Source: Candidatus Hermodarchaeota archaeon (lineage in GTDB: Archaea > Asgardarchaeota > Thorarchaeia > Thorarchaeales > Thorarchaeaceae). From it: a stretch of 15,492 nt of DNA. Made by a program: the position numbers and the translations under genes. Shown one piece after another: positions 1 to 15,321 of the stretch (within the stretch, counting starts at the first letter, position 1; each line of letters begins with the position of its first letter). Where the stretch lies: assembly GCA_048885865.1 (NCBI GenBank), contig JBHLLF010000054.1, forward strand, positions 1-15,492. Reading direction: 5' to 3'. The notes under the pieces were generated by a model, which had not been told where the DNA came from, did not search any database, and worked only from the letters and a program-made list of their open reading frames with translations.

Positions 1-55
1 TTGTTGGATATCGAAGACTGGTGAACGTAGGATGTTCCTCCTAAAGCCACATTTG

Positions 56-1507
56 CTAACCTGTTTTCGGAAATAAATATTCAATTAAGTATAAAAATGA
101 ATCGGTCTTTCGTAAATTCCACGCAGAGCGCGAATTCAAATCTCGCCCGGTCCACCATTTCTCCCTGTGAGTTGAACAGTCCATTAACTCCATCTGGAGC
201 GTTTGGTTTACGGGTCCTATTATTTGATTGCTCACAGTCTGGGATGAGAGAAGCTGCTGTCCGGGAGCAGTGTATTCTATAATTCCTCCAACCATCGTCA
301 TCAGGACCTCTATGTCAGCAAGAGTATCTTCTGGAACGGTCAATGGGTTATCTGAGAGAATAACCAGGTCTGCAAGTTTGCCCACCTTAATGCTCCCCTT
401 CACATCCTCTTGGAATGAGGCATAAGCAGCATCAATTGTAAGGAGTCGGAGCGCTTGTTCTGCAGTGAGAGTCTGATTCAACATTTGAGCTGTGGGAGGG
501 ATTCCCAGCTCGCCAACCCTAGTGACCGCCCTGGAAATTGCTTTCATTGTTGAATGTATAGAACCCCAATTCGAGGGAAAGTCAGTACTTCCGACTGAGG
601 GAACTCCTGCCTGAACAATATCTCGCCATCTTGCAACAGGGAGTTCTCCGTTGTGTAGGTCTGCAAATATCTGCTCATCACCTGATGCCGCTAAGTAGTC
701 TGAATGGTGCCAGGTGAGCTGGAAGGAGGCAATGATTCCAAGGTCACTCATTCTCTGAATCTGGTCGTCTCTGAGAAGGACAAGGTGTTCGATACGATGA
801 CGATATTGTTGGTTCGATTCCCCATCCAAGGTTGATTCTAGAGCATTAAGGGCAATATCTGTCCCATTGTGGATTATACTGTGAATGGCTATCTGGAACC
901 CTGCTTCATGAGCCTCCTGTACTAGTGAATTCAGCTCTGTCTGATTGAAAAAGTGATCATAATTTTGGAACGTGCCTTCATTGAATATCTTCACCCCACC
1001 AATCCGCAACTTCGAACTGAATTCCTGTCTAGGTTGGTAGGCATGATACCAATCGCCAAATCTTTCAAATTGCCAGTTCAATGGGAGATAAGCATTGACT
1101 CGAACACGCAAGCCGACTCGATTCTCATAGCTTATCAGCGAGTCCAGGCACTCTTGATGTGCGTTCAGTTCTGAAACACTTGTCCATCCAGATCTTAACA
1201 CAGTGTCAATTGCTTCTTCTGTTGTTGATATATTCACTCTCCATGACAAATCATGGAACCAATGGCAATGCGAGTCGATGAATCCAGGAACCAGCGTTCG
1301 TCCATCAAGGTCTATGAGTTGTGTGTTTGGCCCCGCCATCGTGAGGGTATCATTCGAATCTCCCATGGCGATGATATACTCACCTTGGATGGCTACTGCC
1401 TCTACTTGTGAAGGGGATTCTTCCATGGTAAGAACTATACCGTTGTGGAAAATAATATCGGGGGAAGTTTCGCTTGGCCTCCAAAATCCCTGTGATCCAA
1501 GATACAA
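56..1507 (-). CDS. Metal-dependent amidohydrolase (YtcJ/Amidohydro_3-like); true start possibly upstream at 1570, adding an N-terminal membrane anchor
   Basis: Motifs IDLDGRTLVPGFIDSHCH (HxH), QIAIHSI, HRIEHL, GSTDFP and KGSIKVGKLADLVILSDNP. The frame stays open upstream of the TTG at 1507 through a hydrophobic stretch. The C-terminal tail reads through repeat R1. Confidence 0.9.
   Translation of the reverse strand: MYLGSQGFWRPSETSPDIIFHNGIVLTMEESPSQVEAVAIQGEYIIAMGDSNDTLTMAGPNTQLIDLDGRTLVPGFIDSHCHWFHDLSWRVNISTTEEAIDTVLRSGWTSVSELNAHQECLDSLISYENRVGLRVRVNAYLPLNWQFERFGDWYHAYQPRQEFSSKLRIGGVKIFNEGTFQNYDHFFNQTELNSLVQEAHEAGFQIAIHSIIHNGTDIALNALESTLDGESNQQYRHRIEHLVLLRDDQIQRMSDLGIIASFQLTWHHSDYLAASGDEQIFADLHNGELPVARWRDIVQAGVPSVGSTDFPSNWGSIHSTMKAISRAVTRVGELGIPPTAQMLNQTLTAEQALRLLTIDAAYASFQEDVKGSIKVGKLADLVILSDNPLTVPEDTLADIEVLMTMVGGIIEYTAPGQQLLSSQTVSNQIIGPVNQTLQMELMDCSTHREKWWTGRDLNSRSAWNLRKTDSFLYLIEYLFPKTG
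135..157 (+). repeat. R1: tRNA-Ala 3'-end repeat, exact consensus
   Basis: ttcaaatctcgcccggtccacca, preceded by gcgaa (partial T-stem complement) and followed by tttctccc. Confidence 0.95.
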
Positions 1508-2286: not shown

Positions 2287-2307
2287 TTTCTTATTGCTTC
2301 TGATATA

Positions 2308-2796
2308 TCATTCAAGACTTATTTTCTCCCTTGCCTGTTCATAGACCTCTTCGGTGCCTTCAATGAGTTTCACCACAAGTCCATGCAGCTGCTGTATCTC
2401 GCTTGGACTTAGAGACTTGAATAGAGAGAACATGGCCGCACTATGTTCCGGAAATCTGGAATCCCAATACTCCTGATTCCTAGGAGTCAGAATCAAGAGC
2501 CATCTCCTCTTATCCTTCTCATCTCGAATCATTTTGACAAAACCCCTCTTCTCTAGATTATTAGCAATTGCTTTCACATTCTGATGACTGGTGCTTAGTA
2601 GTTCAGCGACTTCACTAACGGAAGGAGGGCTGGTGAATCCGTGGCCAATTGCCATGAGAACCAGAAGTTGTTTGGTAGTAAGTCCATCTCTTCTTAGTAT
2701 CTTATCAGTGATATACTCAAATCTTCGACTTAGAATAAAGAGATAGCCGAAGGAGTCCGCCATAGTCTGAGAAAACTCCTCACTCATTTCCAGCAC
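2308..2796 (-). CDS. MarR-family winged-helix transcriptional regulator
   Basis: GLTTKQLLVL...PSVSEVAELLSTSHQNVKAIANNLEKRGFVKMIRDEKDKRRWLLILT gives the HTH plus the DxDxR wing motif. Start is GTG 2796 or ATG 2787. Confidence 0.92.
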   Translation of the reverse strand: MLEMSEEFSQTMADSFGYLFILSRRFEYITDKILRRDGLTTKQLLVLMAIGHGFTSPPSVSEVAELLSTSHQNVKAIANNLEKRGFVKMIRDEKDKRRWLLILTPRNQEYWDSRFPEHSAAMFSLFKSLSPSEIQQLHGLVVKLIEGTEEVYEQAREKISLE

Positions 2797-2851
2797 CCGT
2801 TGTTCCTAGACTACAGAATCCTTCCGCCATCTTAACTCTAACTCCCATTCC

Positions 2852-3739
2852 TCAAGTCCTTCGGATCTTGCTCTTGATCAAGTACAAGAGCCCTGCGTAA
2901 GATAGGACTCCTAGAATTGGGAATATTACTAGACCAGCCGCTGCAGCGCCTGCGACTTCAGGATCCCCGCTTAAAACTTGGACTATTGCCATGGCATTCA
3001 CGGCAGTTCCCATGGTTATGAAGAAACCAAAGAATAGAAGGATGATGGGATATGCCTTCTTTGGTCTTGTAATAAGTAGGTACAGAGCCATGTAGCCCAA
3101 CGGTATTGTGATGCCCAGATCAAGATACCTTATGACCCAGAATACTGTGGGAGTTGATGCATACGATCCTGAGGAGGTGTTTCCTGTTTCAAGCACCTCA
3201 AAGACTTCTGAGGACCACATCATTGCAAAGAACAAGAGGAAGATGGCCATCAGCCCTACATAGATGTACAAGCTTCTACGATTGAACTCTGAAGCATCCT
3301 CATCACCAAACATGGAGAGGCTACTGGTTCCGAGAATCAATCCACCAATGATCAGCATCAAGAATAATCCAAAGTAGTTCTCGATGTTTCCAGAATATGC
3401 TACGTTACTCCACTCTTGACCAATACCATATGAAAGGCCGGTATAGATCAATGTGATTGGAGTGAGGATTAGAAAGTACTTTGATCCTTCTCGTTGCATG
3501 AGATGAAGAAGGCCACCAATAAACAGGAGCGGTGCCATTAGAAGCAGTCCAACTAAATCCTGGCCCATCGTTTGATATATGGCAGACTGCGAAGTTCGGT
3601 GCTCCATAACACCGAAACCAAGAGGACCAAGAAAGGCTATTGTGATTAGGATTCCTGCACAGACCATTGCCACTATTCCAATAACATATCGTTCGAATTT
3701 CTCATGACCCAACTCTACATGTGATTCGCCTGACATCAC
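2852..3739 (-). CDS. Polytopic membrane protein of unknown function (about 8 TM helices)
   Basis: 295 aa with repeated hydrophobic segments and GQD.V.L and YLDLG...P motifs. It lies 3 bp from the upstream gene, consistent with an operon. Confidence 0.85.
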   Translation of the reverse strand: MMSGESHVELGHEKFERYVIGIVAMVCAGILITIAFLGPLGFGVMEHRTSQSAIYQTMGQDLVGLLLMAPLLFIGGLLHLMQREGSKYFLILTPITLIYTGLSYGIGQEWSNVAYSGNIENYFGLFLMLIIGGLILGTSSLSMFGDEDASEFNRRSLYIYVGLMAIFLLFFAMMWSSEVFEVLETGNTSSGSYASTPTVFWVIRYLDLGITIPLGYMALYLLITRPKKAYPIILLFFGFFITMGTAVNAMAIVQVLSGDPEVAGAAAAGLVIFPILGVLSYAGLLYLIKSKIRRT

Positions 3740-3742
3740 TCA

Positions 3743-4186
3743 TCACCTCATTGAAGCATCCAGGGATGGTCCGCCTATTTGGAAAAACACTGTTCTGTTG
3801 ATGACTAGGTAAATCAAGACCAGTACAGGAACAACAAAACCCATTATGGCTGTATACTGAATGGTCATACCCCAGATGTCAAAGACTATGGTTCCTAGAA
3901 TCACCATCATGGTGCCTAGAAAACCCCATCTCTTCTTCTGCCAGAAGCCAATTGCTACAATGAAACCTGAAACTCCCAAGAATAGGAAGATTGTGACTAG
4001 TATATTCGTGGTGCTCTGGAAAACTGGAATATCAAGCAACTGAACCCCGGTTGCCGCCATACAGCCAAAAAGCAAACGAAGAGCTGCATTTCCAACCCAT
4101 ACCATGAATAGCACGAAGAAGAGAAAGCTCCGACCAAAGATTCGATGCTTCCGTTTTTCTTGATTGTTTTCTGTCATTACATTCAC
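3743..4186 (-). CDS. Small membrane protein (about 4 TM), first gene of the MarR operon
   Basis: 147 aa with four hydrophobic segments and a GFWQKKRWG loop. Start is GTG 4186 or ATG 4177. Confidence 0.8.
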   Translation of the reverse strand: MNVMTENNQEKRKHRIFGRSFLFFVLFMVWVGNAALRLLFGCMAATGVQLLDIPVFQSTTNILVTIFLFLGVSGFIVAIGFWQKKRWGFLGTMMVILGTIVFDIWGMTIQYTAIMGFVVPVLVLIYLVINRTVFFQIGGPSLDASMR

Positions 4187-4192
4187 CCAAAT

Positions 4193-4235
4193 TAGGTATT
4201 ATACTACCTAAATAGGTATCATACTACCTTTTAAA
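4193..4235 (-). promoter_or_regulatory. Tandem palindromic operator (TAGGTA-N6-TACCTA, two copies) overlapping an archaeal TATA-like box; probable MarR site
   Basis: taggtattatactaccta at 4193-4210 and taggtatcatactacctt at 4213-4230 (20-bp period). The minus strand reads TTTAAAAG at 4235-4228, immediately upstream of the 3-gene operon. Confidence 0.75.
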
Positions 4236-4309
4236 TGCTTCGGGAGGGTATAGTGCCACCTAATCTTTCGGTGTCGTTTAGAATAGAGATTCAAAGTAGT
4301 AGATGAAAC

Positions 4310-4332
4310 TTCAAATCTCGTCCGGTCCACCA
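4310..4332 (+). repeat. R4: tRNA-Ala 3'-end repeat, 1 mismatch
   Basis: ttcaaatctcgTccggtccacca followed by cttcttcttt. Confidence 0.95.
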
Positions 4333-4350
4333 CTTCTTCTTTGGCCAACC

Positions 4351-5112
4351 TTATCTAGGTCTACAGATAACAATCTGAACACCCGAGTCTGAATCGAAAG
4401 GTTGACCGTCATAGCCCCCATATTTCTGTTCAATTTCAAAGCCATTATAGTAGAGCAGCGCATCAAGTTCCTGAGGAAAGAACATTCTCATGTTGACAGA
4501 GTGCGTTTCTTCTCTTTCTCCTAGTTTGAAATGCAGCTGTAATTTGTTGATCTGAGTAGCACTATCGTATTTGTTGCTCTCAGTGATGGTGACTGTTCCG
4601 TTTCCATCAGGATCAGGATACTCCGCATGTGGAAACTTTTCTGATGGATTTCTTGTAAGAATTGCAAGGCTAGGATTGAAGAAATCAAAGATGAATCTAC
4701 CATCATCAGTAAGGTGGTGTTTCACGCAAGATAGACAGCCCTCTACATCCTCTCTTGTTTCCAAGTGTGCAAAAGCAATCCCAGTCATCAGGATTAGTTT
4801 GAACTTCTTATTCAATTCGAAGTTGGTCATATCGCCCCGGATGAATTCGATATCCAATCCCCTTTCTTTGACTTTTTGCCTTGCAAGGTCTAACATTGCC
4901 TTTGAAAAATCAAGTCCAGTAATGGAAACCTCCTGAGCAAGTGGTATTGTAAGCCTACCAGTCCCACATGCAAGCTCGAGAACAGGACCTTGATATTTCC
5001 GTGTTTGCTGTAGATAGAATTCCAAACCAGAATCAGTCTGGCCCCTGACATCAAGCATTAGGTCATAATGCCGGCCGTCTGAATATATCCACGGATCCTT
5101 GGTTTCTTTCAT
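4351..5112 (-). CDS. Class I SAM-dependent methyltransferase
   Basis: Motif I VLELACGTGRL, plus ITGLDFSKAML, FIRGDMTNF and HLTDDGRFIFD. It is the only gene between R4 and R5. Confidence 0.93.
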   Translation of the reverse strand: MKETKDPWIYSDGRHYDLMLDVRGQTDSGLEFYLQQTRKYQGPVLELACGTGRLTIPLAQEVSITGLDFSKAMLDLARQKVKERGLDIEFIRGDMTNFELNKKFKLILMTGIAFAHLETREDVEGCLSCVKHHLTDDGRFIFDFFNPSLAILTRNPSEKFPHAEYPDPDGNGTVTITESNKYDSATQINKLQLHFKLGEREETHSVNMRMFFPQELDALLYYNGFEIEQKYGGYDGQPFDSDSGVQIVICRPR

Positions 5113-5181
5113 TATTGTTCAAATGATAACCTGAATACTTCCTTAAGAGATTCACCAGTTTTTGAGCCAACCAAAGAACTT

Positions 5182-5204
5182 GTCAAATCTCGCCCTGTCC
5201 ACCA
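5182..5204 (+). repeat. R5: tRNA-Ala 3'-end repeat, 2 mismatches
   Basis: GtcaaatctcgcccTgtccacca followed by ttctttt. Confidence 0.92.
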
Positions 5205-5262
5205 TTCTTTTGCCATCAACTTAATAGAGGGACACACTTGCAACGAATTGGAGGCTTTACAT

Positions 5263-5832
5263 TTGAAGGTCCTAATTGCCTATTGTACCAGATATGGAGC
5301 CACAGCAAGTACATCCGAGGAGATTGCCAATGGACTTCGGCAAGAGGGCTTTGATGTCCGAGTTGTCAATACGAAGAAGGAGAAAGTCAAGAGCGTTTCT
5401 GAATATGACCTCGTGATTGTTGGAGCAGGATTGCAGATGTTTAGATGGTGCAAAGAATCGGAGAAGTTTCTGAAGAAGTTTCAGAAAGATCTTCAAGCCA
5501 TAAGGACTGCCATCTATGTATCATCCGGAGCGATAGCAGTTATGGAGCATGATGGGCAAACAGAAGAAATGGAAGACCATTGGCAGAAGCATCTTGTTGA
5601 CAAGGCAGAGGAGTACTCCATTGATCCTATAGCAATTGGTAGGTTCGGTGGCATATGGGATTACAACAAGATGAACTTCGTATTCAGGAAGAGCATGGGT
5701 CCTTTTCAAATGAAGCTTGAAGAGGTTGGGATAAAAGAAGTCGAACCTGGAGTCTATGATACACGCGATTGGGATGAGATTCGAGGATGGACAAAGAATC
5801 TTGCACAGAGGGTGAGAGGGAATGAAACGTAA
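5263..5832 (+). CDS. Flavodoxin-domain protein (HemG/Flavodoxin_5-like)
   Basis: KVLIAYCTRYGATASTSEEIA (FMN phosphate loop), YDLVIVGAGL, FGG and DTRDWDEIRGW. The ORF track starts at 5248, but the TTG at 5263 follows a GGAGG at 5250-5254 and matches the usual domain start. Confidence 0.88.
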   Translation: MKVLIAYCTRYGATASTSEEIANGLRQEGFDVRVVNTKKEKVKSVSEYDLVIVGAGLQMFRWCKESEKFLKKFQKDLQAIRTAIYVSSGAIAVMEHDGQTEEMEDHWQKHLVDKAEEYSIDPIAIGRFGGIWDYNKMNFVFRKSMGPFQMKLEEVGIKEVEPGVYDTRDWDEIRGWTKNLAQRVRGNET

Positions 5833-6247
5833 GATAATCGCCTTGCTATTGGTGGTTCACGGGTTAATCACATCGATATTCGTGTTTTACATTGAGGACC
5901 CTATGGGAGAAGGGGTTGGATGGAATGGTAGTTCATGGTTATTGACAGGCGCCCTCGATGCTCAGTTAGTTCAGATATTGGGAATAGCTCTATGGGCAGC
6001 TTCCGTGATTGCGTTTGTGCTAGCAGGCATTGCAGTGTTCACAATGCGAGAACAGTGGCGATGGATTGACATCATTGCTTCAATAGTATCTCTTGTGGCA
6101 TACATTCTCTTCTGGAATGGTCTAAGACCAGTTCCTGAGTACTGGATTCTTGGTCCAGTGATATCAGTTGTTACACTTGTTGCCCTGGTCATTGTCCGCT
6201 GGCCTCCTGACGAATGGATATTTGGCACAGAGGCAGGCTCCTCCTAA
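5822..6247 (+). CDS. Small membrane protein (about 4 TM)
   Basis: 141 aa with hydrophobic helices. It overlaps the flavodoxin stop by 11 bp (translational coupling) and ends 12 bp before R6. Confidence 0.8.
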   Translation: MKRKIIALLLVVHGLITSIFVFYIEDPMGEGVGWNGSSWLLTGALDAQLVQILGIALWAASVIAFVLAGIAVFTMREQWRWIDIIASIVSLVAYILFWNGLRPVPEYWILGPVISVVTLVALVIVRWPPDEWIFGTEAGSS

Positions 6248-6259
6248 GGCGGATCCTAT

Positions 6260-6282
6260 ATCAAATCACGCCCGGTCTATCA
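6260..6282 (+). repeat. R6: tRNA-Ala 3'-end repeat, 4 mismatches
   Basis: AtcaaatcAcgcccggtcTaTca, lying between two convergent stop codons. Confidence 0.85.
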
Positions 6283-7029
6283 CTAAGCTCTATCCAAATT
6301 TCGTTTCCATATTTTCTCTATCTTTCGTTCTCGGTTGTAATGGGCCATTTCCCCGCCTATGTTCTTCGTGGTTCCACTCCAGACTGCTAGACCTTCGCTT
6401 ATGCCAAGAAAAAGGACCGTGATGACTCCGCACAAGTCACCAACCAAGATTTGACCAACAAGTCCCAGAGCAAATGATGTAATGATAGTCCAGATTCCTG
6501 CAAAGAAGAAGAACCATTTACGTCTTGCAGGAGTTGCCATTAGAAAGGTCTCATAGTCGATCTTCAGCGTTGGTTCACCGTACATTCCACGGCTCATTCC
6601 TTCAATTCGTATCCCAGCCCACCGCCCCGCAATAAGACGGCCCCAAGAATAGAAGAAGAAGGTGGCTCCAAGTAAACTACCGAGGCGTCTTAGAAATATC
6701 CACCAGTCGATGTCAGTCCAGGAGAAGAATGTTCTCCAATCCAGAGGCACTTCTAGGAGTCTGATATACCAGATGGTGGGTCCAATGACACCAAGAATGG
6801 TCAGCACGATGACACATGGCCAAAGAGGATAGGTCCTTCCTCTTCTCGCCCTGAACAGCAGATTTCTGATGTGTGCTGCTCGCTTGACTTCTGTTGGGTC
6901 TGGATTGGGCTGCTGCTTGATTTGTCTGACAATCTTCCAGAATTGCTTTCGGATTGCTGGTGGTGTGTCTTTGGGATTCTTTGATACAATCTCCCCAATC
7001 TGATTCAACCTTTCAAGTGTAGCAGACAT
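6283..7029 (-). CDS. Membrane protein of unknown function with a basic N-terminal domain
   Basis: 248 aa, ATG start, about 4 TM segments, motifs GRLIAGRWAGIRI and PTLKIDYETFL. The stop codon abuts R6. Confidence 0.8.
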   Translation of the reverse strand: MSATLERLNQIGEIVSKNPKDTPPAIRKQFWKIVRQIKQQPNPDPTEVKRAAHIRNLLFRARRGRTYPLWPCVIVLTILGVIGPTIWYIRLLEVPLDWRTFFSWTDIDWWIFLRRLGSLLGATFFFYSWGRLIAGRWAGIRIEGMSRGMYGEPTLKIDYETFLMATPARRKWFFFFAGIWTIITSFALGLVGQILVGDLCGVITVLFLGISEGLAVWSGTTKNIGGEMAHYNRERKIEKIWKRNLDRA

Positions 7030-7139
7030 TATGCCTAACCATACTAGAGTATTGGGCGAGAGCCTATGAATCCTGACATTCCACTTGCTTCAAAGCTTCT
7101 CTTTTTATTTCACAACAAGGGAGCGGTTCTAGTGATATC

Positions 7140-8174
7140 ATGATCCAATCTAGAAATCTTCTGGTGTCGGTTGGACTTGTTTTAGCAATTATTTGCGTTG
7201 GGGTTACGCTATCGGTTGTGTACTTCTCACAACCCATGGAAGTGCCAACAACAACGACACCAATGGAGGCTCCATTGAATGTTGAGGTCAATCTGATAGG
7301 AGAGATAGATACTGGGGGTTCTGCATTGAGTGTGCATGTGGATGATGATCTCGCTTTCGTGATTGATTTTGGAGAAGACACATCTCATGGGTTAATTATT
7401 GTCAATGTCAGCAATCCATCTCAACCAGAGATACTAGGCACATATCATGCTGGCGGATTACCTTTCGCAATAGAGTCTGTAGATGAGATTGTGTATATTG
7501 CAGACCAGTTCGAAGGACTCAGAATAATCGATATCTCAGACCCAGCTAATCCTGTTGAGATTGAAGGATATGTTGGCAGTGGGATGGCATTTGACTTGGA
7601 AATTGTAGACGACCTCTTGTTCATGGCAGATTATGAGTATGGAATGGTCGTGCTAGATATTAGCTCTCCTAGCAATCCAGTATTTGTTTCAAATCTTGGC
7701 CCTGACTGTGTTCATCTAGAGATTGAAGGGAATGTTGCATACATCGCAGGTGACGGACGCATAAGAGTAGTGGATGTCAGTGATCCACATCATCCAACGC
7801 TTCTAGGCCAGACCATAGAAAGCAGCAGTACTCTGTGGGATCCATCAGTTTCTAATGGCATAATCTACCTAGCCCATCATAGTGGAGATGATGGCGAACT
7901 TCTGATATTTGATGCAGGCGATCCATCGAATATCGAAGAAATAGGTGAATTTGATTCAGAGGGGACATTCCAATCCTTCTTTGTTCAAGACTTGCTGCTG
8001 TATGCCGTTGACTTCGAGAGTGGATTGTACATTCTGGATGTGACTAATTCCATATCACCTGTTGAGAAAGCGAGATTCTCGGATGGGCAACCTTGGGATG
8101 TAACCATCTGCGATGGTTTAGTGTATCTTGTTGGATCGGAAGGTCTGCAAATTCTACAAGTGACTCTAGGCTAG
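7140..8174 (+). CDS. LVIVD-repeat (beta-propeller-like) membrane-anchored or secreted protein
   Basis: N-terminal signal/TM and a Thr/Pro linker, then repeats such as VYIADQFEGLRIIDISDPANP, LFMADYEYGMVVLDISSPSNP and LYAVDFESGLYILDVTNSISP. Confidence 0.9.
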   Translation: MIQSRNLLVSVGLVLAIICVGVTLSVVYFSQPMEVPTTTTPMEAPLNVEVNLIGEIDTGGSALSVHVDDDLAFVIDFGEDTSHGLIIVNVSNPSQPEILGTYHAGGLPFAIESVDEIVYIADQFEGLRIIDISDPANPVEIEGYVGSGMAFDLEIVDDLLFMADYEYGMVVLDISSPSNPVFVSNLGPDCVHLEIEGNVAYIAGDGRIRVVDVSDPHHPTLLGQTIESSSTLWDPSVSNGIIYLAHHSGDDGELLIFDAGDPSNIEEIGEFDSEGTFQSFFVQDLLLYAVDFESGLYILDVTNSISPVEKARFSDGQPWDVTICDGLVYLVGSEGLQILQVTLG

Positions 8175-8204
8175 TTAATAGAAACATCAATGGGGAAACC
8201 GCGA

Positions 8205-8227
8205 TTCAAATCTCGCCCGGTCCACCA
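8205..8227 (+). repeat. R7: tRNA-Ala 3'-end repeat, exact consensus
   Basis: (gcga)ttcaaatctcgcccggtccacca followed by cttctttcttct. Confidence 0.95.
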
Positions 8228-8391
8228 CTTCTTTCTTCTAATCCATCATCATATGGTTGCCATTCCACTTTCTCAATGATATTTGTCTCAAACCCAATCG
8301 CATAGCCATTCAAAGCAGCAATTGAGGCGTCCTGAAATTCACAATCCTAATATCGGGGGGCAGTAGTCAGATTGGACAGGAGATTGGGCCT

Positions 8392-11016
8392 ATGAGGATT
8401 AGAGTATTCGCTTTCATGATTTTATTATGTGCTTTGATTTCGTTTCCAATTACGGGGTATGCTGATGAGGTGCCTGCTGAATTGAGATTTGATGATGTTG
8501 CGTCAGGACCTTATGTGGACAAGTTGGTCTATAGAACAATTTCATCAGAAAGCAGTCGCGTTCAGGCTCTACTGGATAACGAGATTGACATTCTGGATGG
8601 CCCAATTGATTTCTCCTATATCTCGACTTTGAATTCATCACCTGAGGTCGAGTTGTCTTCTATTCTCAGAAATGGGTATGGGGTATACACAATTAATTGC
8701 GCCAAATACCCGCTGAGTATCTCTTCACTTAGGAGAGCCTTTGCATTAGCGCTTGACAAAGAACGAATTTCTACGGAAGTCTTAGGCGGAAAATCAGTTC
8801 TTCATGACTCCTTAGTACCGCTCGTAAATCCCTTCTGTGCTGAGAATTCGTTGCCAGGCGATTACTATTCGAATTACACAAATGAAGCGAATCAACTCCT
8901 TGATGCTGCGGGATTCTTAGACATCAATGCTGATGGATTCCGAGAAGCACCAGACGGGACGACGTTCCAGATTACCATTGAATATGGTGTCACCCAGCCT
9001 CGGGCCGATTCAATTGCAGTACTTGCAGCAGATGCGTTATCAGCGATAAGCATCAATGTTGATATTTCGCCTGGAGATTCCTATGAGATCCTTTACCGAC
9101 TCTACAGTCATGGGGATTTTGATGTTATTTTCGGGGGTCGCAATTTCTATGACTTTGGCCTTCAGTGGTTGGAGAAGTACTACGATTCCTCCCATAACCA
9201 TCCAGGCGAGAATCCCTCTAACTATATCAACGCCACATTAGATGCCTACATGGATATTTTACTAACTAGCACCAGCTATATGGAAATCTACGATGCTGCG
9301 GAAGAGATACAGAAGATACTCTTCGAGGATAGCCCTGAGATTGTCCTGTATGAGGAATTTTCCTACTCTGCCTATAGAAAGGACCGCTTCGAAGGTCACG
9401 TGGTTGATATTATCAATAATGTCGAAAATGAATGGACAAATCTCAATGTACACCTCACGCCTATAGATGGTGGCCCGTTTACAGGAACTCTTAGAATCGG
9501 CATGAGTGTCTTTCCGAGTACACTCAACCCAATGTTGGCGACCCATTATAGCAACATGGTACTTGACAATCTATTCGCACGTCTTATCAAAATAGGGCCA
9601 GATGGAGAATTCAGGACAGATCTAGCCGGAACCTATCTGGTGGAAACTCATGCAGACAATGCTTCAGTACCAGCAGGCTATATGCGATTTACATTTGATA
9701 TTCTGAGTAATGGATCCTGGAGTGATGGGACTTCTGTAACAGCTGACGATGTAGCCTACTCGTTCAATTATTACATGAATGCTGGTGGAGGGCAATTGGC
9801 TGGGTATCTTGAAGACATGACACTTGCCACTGCTCCAAATTCAAGCCGAGTCATAGTTGAGTTCGACATTGAGTCATACTGGCATCTCTACAGTCTCGCA
9901 AACTTGCCCATCCTTCCACGGTCTATTTTGGAGAGCCTCGGGCCAACAGGATGGAGTTCTTGGGACCCAGTTTTCACCGACCCCTTCCTAACATGCGGTC
10001 CTTTCATTCCAACAGCCTATTCCTTAGACAACTACGTGGAGCTATCTCAAACTACACTCTACCATCATAGAGTCCGAGGCACTGGATCGGCATTACCTTT
10101 TGTGTCAGGGCCTACTGATATGACAGTCATAAACGGGACCACAGGAAGTTCAATTGGCTGGAGCATATCTGATGATAATGCATTGGCTTATTGTATTTCG
10201 AAAAATGGAACTGCAATTGCGGGTGAATATTATGACGCTTCCACCGTTGACCTGGACCTTGATACCTATCTCACTGAATATGGCGTCCACAATTTCACTA
10301 TTCGAGTCCAAGATTGGGATGCTCAGATTAGTATTGATACTGTCCTTGTCGAGTTCTTACCGGACACATTTGCCCCTGATGTGGCAGGACCTGATGACTT
10401 CCTCACCTTTGATGTGTTCACCAGCGGAACTCTGATTAGCTGGACGGTCTTCGATCATAATCCTGCCAGCTATAGTATCCTACTTGATGGCATAGTTGTC
10501 GCGTCTGAAGACTGGACGAGTGCGATGATTTCGATAAGTCATGATATTGGAGTACTAAGTGATGGAGAATATAATTTCACAATCTATCTGGTTGATGACA
10601 AAGGTTACAGCTCAACCGACACTGTGATTGTGACAGTGGTTTCAGATGAAGTTCCACCTGTGATTGACTCGCCGGATGACGTAGTCATGAATTTTGGTGA
10701 ACTGGACCAAACGATACAGTGGAATGCAACTGACTTGTACCCGTATACCTTCACAATATACCTGAACTCTATCGTAAATGTCACAGGTACTTGGGAATCA
10801 GGCGTGTCAATCATCTTCAGTCTTGATGGACTTGAAGCTGGTTCCAACAATGTGACCATTGAGATACGAGATAGTGTGAGCAATGCAGTCACGGATACAG
10901 TGAATGTACTTGTACATCCTCCAGGGTATATACCTCCCGAGGTGCTGTTCTTGACGATTGCAGGGGCCTCAGCGGTTGTTGTGATTGTTGTGATAATACT
11001 CAAGGTTCGGAAATGA
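8392..11016 (+). CDS. ABC transporter substrate-binding protein, family 5 (OppA/DppA-like), with three C-terminal Ig-like repeats and a C-terminal TM anchor
   Basis: Signal peptide; LRRAFALALDKERI, ANQLLDAAGF, GTLRIG...STLNP and WSDGTSVTADDVAYSF; three approximately 93-aa repeats; terminal hydrophobic helix followed by KVRK. A GGAG precedes the ATG. Confidence 0.9.
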   Translation: MRIRVFAFMILLCALISFPITGYADEVPAELRFDDVASGPYVDKLVYRTISSESSRVQALLDNEIDILDGPIDFSYISTLNSSPEVELSSILRNGYGVYTINCAKYPLSISSLRRAFALALDKERISTEVLGGKSVLHDSLVPLVNPFCAENSLPGDYYSNYTNEANQLLDAAGFLDINADGFREAPDGTTFQITIEYGVTQPRADSIAVLAADALSAISINVDISPGDSYEILYRLYSHGDFDVIFGGRNFYDFGLQWLEKYYDSSHNHPGENPSNYINATLDAYMDILLTSTSYMEIYDAAEEIQKILFEDSPEIVLYEEFSYSAYRKDRFEGHVVDIINNVENEWTNLNVHLTPIDGGPFTGTLRIGMSVFPSTLNPMLATHYSNMVLDNLFARLIKIGPDGEFRTDLAGTYLVETHADNASVPAGYMRFTFDILSNGSWSDGTSVTADDVAYSFNYYMNAGGGQLAGYLEDMTLATAPNSSRVIVEFDIESYWHLYSLANLPILPRSILESLGPTGWSSWDPVFTDPFLTCGPFIPTAYSLDNYVELSQTTLYHHRVRGTGSALPFVSGPTDMTVINGTTGSSIGWSISDDNALAYCISKNGTAIAGEYYDASTVDLDLDTYLTEYGVHNFTIRVQDWDAQISIDTVLVEFLPDTFAPDVAGPDDFLTFDVFTSGTLISWTVFDHNPASYSILLDGIVVASEDWTSAMISISHDIGVLSDGEYNFTIYLVDDKGYSSTDTVIVTVVSDEVPPVIDSPDDVVMNFGELDQTIQWNATDLYPYTFTIYLNSIVNVTGTWESGVSIIFSLDGLEAGSNNVTIEIRDSVSNAVTDTVNVLVHPPGYIPPEVLFLTIAGASAVVVIVVIILKVRK

Positions 11017-11052
11017 ACTAGCTAAACAGAGGAATGCTTCCTCGTGGTGGTC

Positions 11053-11075
11053 CCCTGTTCTCGTCAAGTCCACCA
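11053..11075 (+). repeat. R8: decayed tRNA-Ala 3'-end repeat
   Basis: tctcgTcAAgtccacca at 11059-11075 matches 14/17 of the 3' part of the consensus; the T-loop part is lost. The 23-bp-equivalent span begins 36 bp after the SBP stop, where a unit boundary is expected. Confidence 0.6.
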
Positions 11076-11379
11076 TCTCAATTCATTCGAATGGATTGAA
11101 CATGCCATGACTCTTCATCAGAGCCTTGCGCTTGAATGCCATTAACCAAGAATATGACCGGATATCCCTTGTAAGATGCATCCATGGAAGCAGTTTCAGA
11201 TTCCGAATATGTGTTCAAGATGCATCATTTTAGAGGCAAAATCTCAATTCCACACCAAGTTCTTCGGTTTTTGGCTCCATTTGTAGATTTACAGTTGATT
11301 TCGGACCCATTGAGTTTGCGCAGATAGATATTCTATCTGAGTGACTCATGCAATATTGAAGAGACCCTGAGGAAGATAG

Positions 11380-12927
11380 ATGATGAGAACCACGCGACAA
11401 ACGAGAGCAATCCTGGTAATGAGTTTGGCCTTCCTCTTGCCGCTTACAATAATCAGTGTCTTCTATTATCGTCCGCTTTTTGCACCGGTATACTTGGAGC
11501 CATCCGACTCGATTGATGATTTCGTTGAACAATTGGACGCAAAAATCTCTGGATTGCTAGAAACAAATACTGTCCCTGGAGCTGCCATTGCTGTCATTTC
11601 AAATAATCAGACCAATATCATCACAGCTGGTAGGTCAAACCTGTTTGCAAGCGAGCCGCTTACACCGCACCATATTTTTCAAATTGCATCCATGTCCAAG
11701 AGCCAGTGTGCACTTGCGATTATGAAATTGGTGCAAGATGGATTGATTCTACTTGATGCGCCCGTAGAGTGGTATCTGACAAGATGGTCATTTCCGGATT
11801 CTCAATACAACACCTCAGGTGTGACAGTTCGAAGAATACTATGCCATGCAGCTGGTATTTCCTTAGAGGGAGTTTCAGGAGGGTTCAGCCCGGATGATGT
11901 GTATACAATTGAGGACGCATTGACTGAATCAGGAGTGAGTTTGATCTACGAGCCGGGGAGTGTCTTCTCATACTCCGGCGGTGGATATGGAATTCTGCAA
12001 TTGCTCATAGAAGAAGTCAGTGGAATGAGCTACGACGAGTATCTACAATCACAAGTATTTGAACCTCTGAATATGTCAGATACTACAACTGGTTGGGATT
12101 CCTCTATTGAGCATCATCTTGCTGTGGGATACAGTAACATGCTTCTGCCAATTATTCGAACCTATCCTGTAATGAAGGCTGCAGCTGCGCACTACTCAAG
12201 TATCGAAGACATGGCAAAATGGGTGAACCATCTTCTTGTCGGCCAGCCAGTCGTTAATACAACAAATATGCTAGCGATGTACACACCACAATGGGGTGAA
12301 TCGTGGGGTTGGACTCTGGGCTTCAACTACAAGATGCTTAGCAATGGGATACTCACATTAGGTCACGGTGGTGATAATTGGGGGTATCATGGTGCATATC
12401 GTTTCGCACCCGAAGATGGAGAGGCGATTATAGTTCTAACAAATGGTGATCGAGGGGCCGCATTTGTAACAGAGTTGCTGCATCATTGGGAAACTGTTAT
12501 TGAAGGAGGCGATCTGGAAATCCTGTGGGAAGAACAGAATCAAGCCTATGGACAGACATTCCTCTATGAGATCATTACAGTAGTCGGCTTTCTGACTCTG
12601 TTGCTGCTTGCCTGGAAGAGAGGCTTCATTGTTTTCTCTCGAAATGTAGAACAGAAGAGGGTTGGAGAAAGGAGATGGTTCAGAAGAATTGTATCAGTCA
12701 TATGCGTTTTGGCGATTATTATGTTCTTCATTTATTGGGGATATACACCTTTGAGTCCCATATCTTATGGACCCATTAGCTATGTCTGGACTATTATTGC
12801 GCCTCTCACTTGGCTGACTTGGACATCAGTGGCTTTCCAGCAATTCGATTTGGTTTCGGAAAAGACTCCATCTGAAGACATCGTAGAACATCGGATCTCG
12901 CCCGGTCCACCAATTAGAGGAGCATAA
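11380..12927 (+). CDS. Serine hydrolase, beta-lactamase class C/AmpC-like family, membrane-anchored at both ends
   Basis: FQIASMSK (SxxK), TVRRILCHAAG, PGSVFSYSGGGY (catalytic Tyr), VFEPLNMSDT, GHGG and IIVLTNG. One N-terminal TM and about 3 C-terminal TMs. The last codons include R9. Confidence 0.92.
   Translation: MMRTTRQTRAILVMSLAFLLPLTIISVFYYRPLFAPVYLEPSDSIDDFVEQLDAKISGLLETNTVPGAAIAVISNNQTNIITAGRSNLFASEPLTPHHIFQIASMSKSQCALAIMKLVQDGLILLDAPVEWYLTRWSFPDSQYNTSGVTVRRILCHAAGISLEGVSGGFSPDDVYTIEDALTESGVSLIYEPGSVFSYSGGGYGILQLLIEEVSGMSYDEYLQSQVFEPLNMSDTTTGWDSSIEHHLAVGYSNMLLPIIRTYPVMKAAAAHYSSIEDMAKWVNHLLVGQPVVNTTNMLAMYTPQWGESWGWTLGFNYKMLSNGILTLGHGGDNWGYHGAYRFAPEDGEAIIVLTNGDRGAAFVTELLHHWETVIEGGDLEILWEEQNQAYGQTFLYEIITVVGFLTLLLLAWKRGFIVFSRNVEQKRVGERRWFRRIVSVICVLAIIMFFIYWGYTPLSPISYGPISYVWTIIAPLTWLTWTSVAFQQFDLVSEKTPSEDIVEHRISPGPPIRGA
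12890..12912 (+). repeat. R9: tRNA-Ala 3'-end repeat, 3 mismatches, inside the 3' end of a CDS
   Basis: AtcGGatctcgcccggtccacca; the last 18 bp are exact and encode ISPGPP in the serine hydrolase tail. Confidence 0.9.
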
Positions 12928-12985
12928 TACATTGAAGTTGGGTGTTCAGTTTCATCCTATTTCCTTCACAGAGTCATCAGAGCTG

Positions 12986-13465
12986 CTACTCCTCCATCGG
13001 CTCCGAGTTTTGCAAAGCTAGATGTCTGCAAACAATACCGTTAGGAATTGATGTTATCGCAATTGAGAGACCAAGCGTCACAATCAAGGCATCAACGATA
13101 CTAGGAAAGAGTCCACCATAAAGTACGCTAGCAATCAATGCTGTTGATATTGCAACTGGTATTTGAATGAGGCAGAGGACAAAGAAGAGGAGTGCTCCAT
13201 TTCCCAGAAGGACTTGCCAGGTTTGGCCAACGGGCGTGGCCCATAGATGATTGGCAATTGCATGATTGACTGCCCCAATGGCGATGAATATTCCTAGGAA
13301 TATGTAGACAATGACGAACAGAACAATAAGTGGCTCTAGGGTGAGCGGGCGACGGTCATAGCTCAATATCCAGTCAACTAGAAACACAAAGGGGATATAT
13401 CCACCCATCAATAGTGAGTAGAAAACCCCGCCAATGAAGTACTTGTACATAATTTCAAGCTTCAT
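12986..13465 (-). CDS. Hypothetical membrane protein (about 4 TM)
   Basis: 159 aa, ATG preceded by GGAGG on the minus strand, with hydrophobic helices. It is the only complete gene between R9 and R10. Confidence 0.8.
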   Translation of the reverse strand: MKLEIMYKYFIGGVFYSLLMGGYIPFVFLVDWILSYDRRPLTLEPLIVLFVIVYIFLGIFIAIGAVNHAIANHLWATPVGQTWQVLLGNGALLFFVLCLIQIPVAISTALIASVLYGGLFPSIVDALIVTLGLSIAITSIPNGIVCRHLALQNSEPMEE

Positions 13466-13594
13466 TCTGCTTCCTCCTTTGCTTCATTCCTATTCACCAT
13501 AAGGTAGCATGTAAATCGGGTAGTCTTCGCCTCAACTAGGCCAGGTCAATGTGCGTTAAAGAATATCAGATTTTCTGAGCGAGTACTACGCCAG

Positions 13595-13617
13595 TTCAAA
13601 TCTCGCCCGGTCCACCG
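13595..13617 (+). repeat. R10: tRNA-Ala 3'-end repeat, 1 mismatch
   Basis: (g)ttcaaatctcgcccggtccaccG. Confidence 0.95.
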
Positions 13618-13638
13618 CCTATTGTACGATGCTTAAGA

Positions 13639-14631
13639 TCACAATTTCGGAACAATTCGTTCCTTCAGAATCCTGATAGTATCCAATCCATTCTCGCGTA
13701 GGTTTCCAATGAATGGTAGACAGATAGTCACTAACTCAACTTTATCCTTGTATTCTGATAACTTCTCAATCACTACTTCAGGTGGTCCGGCGATTTCTCT
13801 GGTAAGGGCAGCTTCTAGCCACTCTTGCTTCATAGACTCAGTCATTATTTTCTCCAGCCACTCCTGCTTCAAAACAGCCTGCTTCCTCTGTTCATAATCC
13901 TCCTCATCTTCACCGATGACAACCGCAGTTTTACTCACTGACCATCGAATCTCTTGAAAGTCACGCCCTACCTTATCGCACGCAGCTTCAACACGCTTCA
14001 TTTTTTGGGCATATTCAGTTGGCGTTTTACCCTCAAAATCCACTCCATCTCCATATCTAGCTGCAGTTTCTTCCATCATGGGTGCTTCCAAAGTCAAAGT
14101 TCCAATCCAAATTGGGACTCTCGGCCTCTGCATCGGTTTTGGCAGAAACATGGAGTCTTTAATTCTGTAAAACTTGCCATCGAAGCTAGGTCGCTCCTCA
14201 GTCCAAAGGAGTCTGATTATTTGAAGCGCCTCTCTAAGCTGTAGTATTCTTGTCTTAGAAGAAGGAAATGCATAACCATATGCCTCGTACTCCGCTGCTT
14301 TATGTCCGGCCCCAATTCCCAAATCCACTCTTCCGTTGGATGCATTATCTAGATTTGCGACAATTTTCGCAAGAAGTGCTGGATTCCTGTAAGACTGCGA
14401 AGTCACTTGCGTGCCCAGAATAATACGCTCGGTCTGTGGTGTAAGTAATGCAATAGTTGTCCAAGCCTCATAGCAAGGAATCTCTGTCCCTTTTGGATAT
14501 CCAAAGAAATGGTCCGAAATTGAGAATCTGTAGAAGCCTGCATCTTCTGCCGCTTTAGCCAGTACTACAATGTCCTCATAGGAATATCCCGCCTGCGGTT
14601 CAATATGGATACACAGTTTCATTACAGTCAC
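13639..14631 (-). CDS. LLM-class (luciferase-like) oxidoreductase, probably F420-dependent
   Basis: AKAAEDAGF...SDHF, YEAWTT, YRNPALLAKIVANLDNASNGRVDLGIGAG, SFDGKFY and PKPMQRPRVPIWIG. F420 dependence is inferred from the subfamily motifs. Confidence 0.93.
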   Translation of the reverse strand: MTVMKLCIHIEPQAGYSYEDIVVLAKAAEDAGFYRFSISDHFFGYPKGTEIPCYEAWTTIALLTPQTERIILGTQVTSQSYRNPALLAKIVANLDNASNGRVDLGIGAGHKAAEYEAYGYAFPSSKTRILQLREALQIIRLLWTEERPSFDGKFYRIKDSMFLPKPMQRPRVPIWIGTLTLEAPMMEETAARYGDGVDFEGKTPTEYAQKMKRVEAACDKVGRDFQEIRWSVSKTAVVIGEDEEDYEQRKQAVLKQEWLEKIMTESMKQEWLEAALTREIAGPPEVVIEKLSEYKDKVELVTICLPFIGNLRENGLDTIRILKERIVPKL

Positions 14632-14732
14632 CAGACAATTCAGTTCTCATATTGATTGAATCATTTGCATTCATGAGAAACCTTTCTCTCTCCTATTAAC
14701 AGGAAACATCAAAGCAAGCGCCAATTTTCCTG

Positions 14733-15236
14733 TCATTGAGGCCGCTTATATCTAAACCATAAGAGGAGGAGTATTCCAAACGCCAACATTATTGGGATTG
14801 GGATATATAGAGGCACCAAAGGATCACCATCTCCTGGCCAGTCAACCAAGAATACCAAAGGAGCTGATACAAGTACTGGCTGGATTTCTGCTAGGATTCC
14901 TACCAAGAGCGTCCTCCGTGGAGATGTCTTGCCAGCATACAATCTAGCCAGCATTACTGCGAAGATAAGCCTCAGAAGTGTGTAAGGAAGAGTGTCAAGA
15001 GGATTCCAGATTCTGAATCCTGAATACCAGCTGGACTCGATGTAATCCCAAATTATAGCTCTGATGGAATCTGGACCAGGACCCAGATCAACACGATATG
15101 CAAATGGCAGAAGAACGGAAAATGCCAGCATGACTGCAGCCGCAAAAGCAAAGTGCATATTATTCTCGGATTGTGATGAGTCCACCTCTTCCACGCTCAT
15201 TCGGTTGTCTAGGAATTTGTTTTCACTCTTAGTCAT
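14733..15236 (-). CDS. Hypothetical membrane protein
   Basis: 167 aa, ATG start, about 4 hydrophobic segments, ending PIPIMLAFGILLLLWFRYKRPQ. Confidence 0.75.
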   Translation of the reverse strand: MTKSENKFLDNRMSVEEVDSSQSENNMHFAFAAAVMLAFSVLLPFAYRVDLGPGPDSIRAIIWDYIESSWYSGFRIWNPLDTLPYTLLRLIFAVMLARLYAGKTSPRRTLLVGILAEIQPVLVSAPLVFLVDWPGDGDPLVPLYIPIPIMLAFGILLLLWFRYKRPQ

Positions 15237-15298
15237 TATTATTTGAGCAGAGTTTTACCTGGTCCAGCATCCTTTTTGCTCAACCGTAGAACATCAGT

Positions 15299-15321
15299 TT
15301 AAAATCTCGCCCGGACCACCA
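15299..15321 (+). repeat. R11: tRNA-Ala 3'-end repeat, 2 mismatches
   Basis: ttAaaatctcgcccggAccacca followed by gttctatttctt. Confidence 0.92.

Follow-up and report, generated by a model that had tools for sequence, protein, structure and literature searches.

Displaced tRNA-Ala 3' ends as boundaries of small gene cassettes in Thorarchaeota

Results

The window studied here, 15,492 bp in length, constitutes the entire contig C54 of G000, a 3.58-Mb, 87%-complete Thorarchaeota MAG; for a gene of the putative neighbouring contig, the best relatives bear the name Thorarchaeota. A 23-mer located at positions 135-157 of the + strand (R1) has nine copies in the window at up to three mismatches, with none found in 200 shuffles, and a profile search adds a copy at 6260 and a decayed one at 11053, which gives a total of 11 copies, all on the + strand and spaced by 628-2848 bp. 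Two further copies are present in contig C9 (C9:170 and C9:1681), making 13 fragments in all. The initial annotation interpreted this repeat as the 3' end of a tRNA-Ala, comprising the T loop, a T-stem strand, the acceptor strand, A73 and CCA, and the comparison of the repeats with the tRNA genes of the genome bears out both the identification and the parse. The 23-mer represents the T54-to-CCA (T54-A76) end of tRNA-Ala and is identical to the last 23 nt of tRNA-Ala(CGC) (C61:3002-3109), the one assembled tRNA that ends in it exactly, which has the GGGCCGG/CCGGTCC acceptor, the G3:U70 pair and the A73 of tRNA-Ala identity. No full-length tRNA occurs within the window. A pyrimidine tract lies directly 3' of every copy (84% C/T over 9 nt across fragments), and each unit of the array consists of a tRNA 3' piece, this pyrimidine tail and one to three accessory cargo genes, which lie on either strand and none of which encodes a recombinase. 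The units are 628-2848 bp long, eight of the ten being shorter than 2 kb.

At the left edge of the window (1-110, - strand), there is the end of a unit with the 5' end and upstream region of a small HTH/Cys-rich gene; this unit extends 84 bp further in G004 and G007. Small HTH and Cys-rich proteins of the same family are also encoded at unit ends elsewhere (L101:15104-15520 and C11:7950-8363), and the family adjoins one integrase locus (L092). The 3' part of the T-arm intron (53/54) of tRNA-Ala(GGC), recognised by alignment with relatives (111-134, + strand), is followed by R1 (135-157), detected by the 23-mer search and the tRNA match. Unit 1 (158-1635, - strand) carries an Amidohydro_3 gene (ORF 56-1507) which meets no stop codon in R1 and continues across it, and whose homologues are found in 14 other loci, with several different joints. 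R2 (1636-1658), the joint of which lies at a GTTCAA microhomology inside the cargo, precedes unit 2 (1659-2263, - strand) with a DUF4760 gene (1681-2187). R3 (2264-2286) and R4 (4310-4332), both detected by the 23-mer search, flank unit 3 (2287-4309, - strand) with a MarR gene (2308-2796) and two membrane-protein ORFs (2852-3739 and 3743-4186). Unit 4 (4333-5181, - strand) encodes a SAM methyltransferase (4351-5112) and is followed by R5 (5182-5204), which begins within the T loop, and by unit 5 (5205-6259, + strand), with a flavodoxin gene (5248-5832) and a membrane ORF (5822-6247); the DNA homologous to unit 5 begins at a repeat in five relatives.

R6 (6260-6282), a decayed copy with four mismatches found by the profile search, is followed by unit 6 (6283-8204), in which a membrane ORF (6283-7029) is on the - strand and the gene of an LVIVD-repeat protein (7140-8174) on the + strand. 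Unit 7 (8228-11052, + strand), with a family-5 solute-binding protein gene (8392-11016), lies between R7 (8205-8227) and the strongly decayed R8 (11053-11075), which has a matching decayed copy at the same place in G015. The gene of a beta-lactamase-family serine hydrolase (11380-12927) in unit 8 (11076-12889, + strand) reads through R9 (12890-12912), the tRNA match of which is limited to positions 59-76. Thus two cargo ORFs, 56-1507 and 11380-12927, cross a repeat before their stop codon. Unit 9 (12913-13594, - strand; membrane ORF 12986-13465), R10 (13595-13617; 23-mer search) and unit 10 (13618-15298, - strand; luciferase-like monooxygenase gene 13639-14631 and membrane ORF 14733-15236) precede R11 (15299-15321), beyond which the array goes on toward C9.

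The exact match of the repeat to Ala(CGC) does not make this gene the parent of the array, as it is unlinked and has no copies behind it, and one copy follows Ala(TGC) in G000. Results of our analysis point to tRNA-Ala(GGC), which is absent from the G000 assembly. In many genomes of relatives, Ala(GGC) heads arrays of the same orientation: at least two fragments within 6 kb follow 12-13 of the 19 GGC genes whose flank is 3 kb or longer (one count being other tRNA genes) and none of the 16 CGC genes. In genus g4, no arrays were seen in the loci examined. The last 33 nt of Ala(GGC) and Ala(CGC) are identical, and yet Ala(CGC) is almost unused. A helicase-PUA-Lsm block precedes GGC, being within 10 kb in 17 of 33 loci, in 13 of them in the expected orientation, and in G000 it sits on contig C53. 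No recognisable recombinase is encoded in the whole conserved block upstream of the tRNA (beta-CASP protein, which we take to be aCPSF1, small ORF, helicase, PUA and Lsm). At the other side, a single stretch of G015 matches both the right end of the window and the beginning of C9, with some 270 bp between them, and the array probably runs on from R11 over a gap of this size into C9, where two copies are followed by tRNA-Phe, a gene that adjoins arrays in relatives too. The order C53 - gap - C54 - C9 matches the order PUA/Lsm - tRNA-Ala(GGC) - array - tRNA-Phe of relatives, and so the predicted parent on the + strand, to the left of position 1, is supported by synteny and not by direct assembly. 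In the single scaffold of G004, which contains N gaps, the head tRNA could not be placed. The alleles of the fragments track the head tRNA weakly (position 57, p=0.04; position 65, p=0.02), and those at positions 62 and 64 do not. The window is best read as the middle part of a variable island behind the Thorarchaeota tRNA-Ala(GGC).

The start points of the tRNA pieces were surveyed in 187 fragments representing 127 cassette-end families; as the loci were chosen by pattern hits and the MAGs are related, the counts are descriptive. The initial annotation placed the start of the repeat exactly at the T loop. The T arm is indeed the commonest joint position (78% of fragments), with 68 starts at about T54, 66 inside the T loop and 11 in the 5' T stem; the remaining 22% start further upstream, namely in the variable loop or 3' anticodon stem (19), in the anticodon loop or its intron (18), and in or beyond the T-arm intron (5). 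The claimed exact start is thus not borne out, as the boundaries are spread between the anticodon arm and position 59. Few shorter pieces turned up when scanning began at the CCA end, and the T-arm peak is therefore no detection artefact. The intact 7-nt loop (TTCRAAT) is kept in 109 of the 187 fragments (58%), and 42% are without it. R5, R6, R9, R11 and the decayed R8 begin inside the loop; some boundaries of this kind may reflect sequence decay.

The Ala(GGC) genes of Thorarchaeota have up to three introns (in the D loop, in the anticodon loop and at G53/T54). The similarity of R1 to the tRNA gene, said earlier to stop at the first T of the loop, extends over a further 24 nt on the upstream side (111-134), which correspond to the 3' part of the 53/54 intron; the extension scores 21 points over 24 nt against locus L007, the null maximum being 5, and positions 111-1660 of the window align as a single block with the head tRNA and first cassette of G020. 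R1 thus stems from the displaced end of an allele that had the intron, and the GCGA preceding it, regarded before as a partial restoration of the T-stem dyad, is consequently half of the intron splice helix. As read from the alignment, 111-134 appears to end in the CGCG-AA half of a relaxed bulge-helix-bulge motif; the folding z-score of the intron region was not significant. The GCGA upstream of R7, to which the same role had been ascribed, is the cargo end (family E3), one base off the T-stem register, and its homologues have CCACGA or CTACGA there. Introns of the 53/54 type are found also in tRNA-Leu (L107, C9:59228-59347), in a multi-intron tRNA (L106, C88:6369-6560) and in one Ala(CGC) (L031). 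The end of such an intron mimics the 5' T-stem strand, and ARAGORN misses or miscalls the three genes in question.

Units pass from one lineage to another and change their order at the repeats. Among the flank pairs, 47 have only the upstream flank in common, 38 only the downstream flank and four both. Identity at positions 46-54 goes with the upstream unit, and that of the tail with the downstream unit. Non-consensus bases at positions 54 and 55 are common to upstream mates in 8/23 and 2/12 cases, respectively, against a background of 9% and 3%, and beyond position 55 almost none are common to mates. One cassette end has A54 in six copies with six different neighbours. Since cassettes with a mismatch at T54 still change neighbours, the exchange is confined to the segment from about position 55 to the CCA, before the tail, and does not require identity at T54; the strand exchange postulated before within a fixed 7-bp TTCAAAT is difficult to reconcile with loop mismatches at 54-55 that are inherited along with the upstream cassette, such cassettes being still mobile. 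The G015 genome, about 95% identical here, is without units 9 and 10 at this position and has other common units in a different order, which indicates that events occur also inside the array. The expected entry of new cassettes at the tRNA end is reflected in a mild polarity (p=0.02 for the window array; p=0.15 for the relatives alone).

As to the origin of unit ends, the longer versions of unit 1 extend 41-42 bp beyond the position of R2 before they reach their own joint, and their cargo reads GTTCAA precisely at that position; thus R2 arose at a T-loop-like microhomology. At an anticodon-loop joint, the microhomology is 7 nt; in about ten independent cases it is 6-8 nt at two joints and 0-3 nt at most others. 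The CCA side is mostly conserved in register, but it can shift, in one case by 29 bp where CCACCA and TCATCA match, and a CCA-side joint cuts the amidohydrolase reading frame. The possibility that circularisation supplies the stop codon of the amidohydrolase was rejected, as it holds for two R2-joint copies and fails for six others tested. Promoter-bearing 5' fragments and inverted heads are also present. The 5' fragments of tRNA-Ala(GGC) with the conserved promoter CTCCACAATTCTTTTAACC (L004, L046, L047, L061, L062, L065, L069) end mostly in the D-loop intron or the anticodon stem, and some are inverted relative to the head. In L106:6369-7614, a tRNA on the - strand has two 3' fragments on the + strand upstream, an inverted layout seen also in L050, L054, L060, L065, L069 and L080. 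A tandem of three full-length tRNA-Ala(TGC) genes, spaced by 849 bp, is present in L056:2379-4077.

A search of G000 for spaced direct repeats revealed cassette rows of the same layout that are bounded by protein-gene tails and have no T loop; the gene names given here rest on our reading of the translations. These tails derive from an acyl-CoA dehydrogenase-like gene (C14, nine copies), mvhD (C56) and an IscU-like gene (C27), and other boundaries include a SECIS-like unit (C19), a tRNA-Tyr tail and a tRNA-Leu tail. The dehydrogenase and mvhD rows are found also in relatives. Differences between tail copies and the parent fall mainly in synonymous codons (128 synonymous vs. 66 other codons for dehydrogenase, 20 vs. 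9 for mvhD, 31 vs. 8 for IscU), on account of which we read the copies as probable once-functional ends from other lineages. The dehydrogenase tails have a preferred yet fuzzy boundary, mostly 60-71 nt before the stop codon, and no motif common to the tRNA and protein-gene array boundaries was seen by eye. In C14:263-17727, the dehydrogenase-like gene is flanked by upstream-region repeats (three copies, 263-2144) and by the nine tail copies with a hairpin, each pair of repeats bracketing cargo genes. Further rows or single duplications (C56:11830-14586, C27:16429-18980, C19:7537-11417, C13:32-9870, C20, C106, C110 and C5:107881-108630) are bounded by gene tails or upstream regions (mvhD, the IscU-like gene, the SECIS-like unit, an acetyl-CoA synthetase-like gene and others). 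Short integrase-free islands lie behind tRNA-Ala(TGC) (L105:5888-11257), tRNA-Tyr (L108:5332-16803; fragments of 50 and 27 nt) and tRNA-Leu (L107, C9:59325-59693). A tRNA-SeC was called by ARAGORN at C4:15723-15813, consistent with selenoprotein use.

The tyrosine integrase expected by the initial annotation was found neither among the window ORFs nor in G000 or the array loci. The 87%-complete G000 has no match to PF00589, PF16795, PF00239, PF01867, PF00078 or PF01797, that is, no detected tyrosine or serine recombinase (IntI included), Cas1, RT or Y1 transposase, and hence the casposase, serine resolvase, SSV-type integrase and Y1 transposase were rejected as the agent. Reverse transcription from a mature tRNA, with an 18-nt primer-binding-site-like copy, was also rejected: there is no sharp 58/59 edge, the fragments carry introns and there is no RVT_1. 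The DprA family has one weak match in G000. An HMM built from thorarchaeal recombinases gave nothing credible in G000 or array loci, and its four top weak matches are zinc-ribbon proteins. No tRNA or tRNA end was detected in the fetched flanks of 20 thorarchaeal recombinases, no integrase remnants in the array loci examined, no tRNA-specific integrase elements downstream of the 28 GGC heads examined, and no exact 23-mer in the viral contigs searched. PF00589 is present in 23 of 61 family genomes and is missing from many array-rich, near-complete ones. The attC core (RYYYAAC ... GTTRRRY) is absent from all 11 sites, with one chance occurrence of an inverse core. As G000 is 87% complete and its head tRNA is missing, the enzyme could lie in a gap or visit on a transient element.

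Discussion

Taken together, these observations make it, in our judgement, slightly better than an even chance that genes are captured throughout this lineage at conserved gene ends by short-homology additive recombination, for which the T arm is a fuzzy hotspot. The T loop is then best read as a part of this hotspot and not as a dedicated att overlap. A unit would arrive as a small DNA molecule, probably a circle released from a relative by excision between two repeats, and would undergo crossover through the 18-25 bp that it has in common with either the tRNA end already in place or a copy within the array; this crossover would restore the tRNA gene and displace the old end downstream. New unit ends would be formed when cargo is joined imprecisely to a tRNA gene; most of these joints would lie in the T arm, some in the anticodon arm or an intron, and many would coincide with short microhomologies. 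The catalyst would not be array-encoded and would most likely be a lineage-wide activity of low specificity, acting also on conserved protein-gene ends. Homology of 18-25 bp is short for RadA-type exchange, which speaks against this reading, and so do the strongly peaked boundaries (the T arm with 78% and, in dehydrogenase tails, a second peak 60-71 nt ahead of the stop), which plain homologous recombination does not explain and which suggest a site preference. More tentatively, and with our expectation leaning somewhat the other way, we propose a general integrase-free gene-capture system of Thorarchaeota, in which conserved gene ends (tRNAs, metabolic genes and promoters) would be reusable recombination sites, integron-like arrays would form genome-wide, and tRNA intron alleles would be carried between lineages incidentally.

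An alternative is a relaxed tyrosine recombinase acting in trans, either divergent or supplied by transient viruses or plasmids, as in tycheposons, and moving integrase-free cassettes. Such an enzyme would cut the T arm or the T/acceptor junction and tolerate mismatches at 54-55, other boundaries being the work of other integrases or of later deletions. We regard it as rather unlikely. The modal boundary at T54-C56 and the anticodon-arm cluster do fit two symmetric sublocations (PMC8371274, PMC4383910), R2 arose at a secondary site resembling TTCAA, PF00589 genes are present in 23 of 61 family genomes, and Prochlorococcus islands retain partial tRNAs after elements leave (10.1101/2020.12.28.424599). 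However, the 20 thorarchaeal recombinases lack tRNA ends in their fetched flanks, the top HMM matches are zinc-ribbon proteins, neither a viral contig with the 23-mer nor integrase remnants were found in the material examined, and the arrays on protein-gene tails and the neglect of Ala(CGC) would be left unexplained.

An integrase of the lambda/Ms6 type exchanging strands across the 7-bp TTCAAAT, so that every fragment would begin at T54, is improbable and already largely refuted by the inherited T54 mismatches. An att site of this type implies an identical 7-bp overlap and a fixed boundary; here, the loop is intact in 109 of 187 fragments, mismatches at 54-55 are inherited, and boundaries reach the anticodon. 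A precedent exists in Ms6, which uses the T loop of tRNA-Ala, and 68 of 187 fragments do start at or near T54, but Ms6 did not integrate at a site with one T-loop base changed (PMC1762012), whereas 42% of the fragments are without an intact loop and mismatched cassettes are mobile. Moreover, 22% of fragments, including R1, start well upstream, and no arrays follow Ala(CGC), although its last 33 nt are identical (at least two fragments in 0 of 16). Repeated breakage of the tRNA gene and its end-joining with foreign DNA that restores the tRNA, the arrays being scars and not a cassette system, would account for the truncation of cargo genes at joints and for heads split into a 5' and a 3' piece with complete, inverted tRNAs in between, but is very improbable, as a given unit end is found repeatedly in different genera beside many other neighbours, which needs repeated precise reuse of the repeats.

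In its operation, the array resembles an integron or a tandem tRNA island, but it does not qualify as either. As in islands formed by tyrosine integrases (PMC4383910, PMC8371274, PMC1762012), an intact tRNA is followed by co-oriented displaced 3' fragments, which is seen directly in relatives and by synteny only in G000, where the head tRNA is unassembled, and joints lie in the T arm and the anticodon arm; T-loop and T/acceptor-junction sites are hard to distinguish (PMC4383910). In contrast to the islands catalogued by Islander, which by definition span 2-200 kb and include only four tandems of three or more among 3919 (PMC4383910), there are 13 fragments here, the units are of 628-2848 bp with eight of ten under 2 kb, none carries an integrase, the boundaries are fuzzy, and protein-gene ends are also used. 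The tycheposon islands of Prochlorococcus (10.1101/2020.12.28.424599) likewise show polarised accretion behind a tRNA (including Ala-GGC), scattered partial tRNAs and frequent absence of the elements themselves; however, tycheposons carry tRNA-specific integrases and leave remnants, whereas none were found beside the tRNAs here, and nearly all units have clean boundaries. Integrons and CALINs, including archaeal ones (PMC9668308), also consist of one-to-three-gene cassettes between recombination sites that are reshuffled across genomes, and small cassettes are reshuffled at sites in the window array as well, but IntI and a proper attC core or inverse core are missing, the sites are tRNA or gene tails, and the cargo lies on either strand. 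Target duplication of the casposon type requires a Cas1-family casposase, and G000 has no PF01867 match.

Foreign DNA can be brought in through a conserved anchor and short-homology joints by homology-facilitated illegitimate recombination, described in a few naturally competent bacteria (PMC6382021), and by the low-specificity recombination of IntpTN3 in Thermococcales (PMC8371274). Intron-variable alleles lie beside tRNA fragments also in Caldiarchaeum, where the insert encodes a recombinase (PMC3293823), and among intron-rich Asgard tRNAs (10.64898/2026.10.13.758758); the portions of the latter preprint considered here describe no fragment arrays and report that no route of intron arrival was found. 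Our search of the literature yielded no description of these cassette arrays of Thorarchaeota. Nor are we aware of a report that homology-facilitated illegitimate recombination or IntpTN3 builds extended arrays in which gene ends are duplicated.

The genomes of Asgard archaea are large and contain many acquired genes, but little is known of the routes by which these arrived. A T-loop att site by itself would be ordinary. If our interpretation is correct, an integrase-free cassette system based on gene ends would account for many accessory genes of Thorarchaeota, and the operation of cassettes without an on-board integrase would point to a new recombination activity. The displaced fragments preserve intron pieces of other alleles, and thereby suggest a specific way, open to testing, in which tRNA introns could spread.
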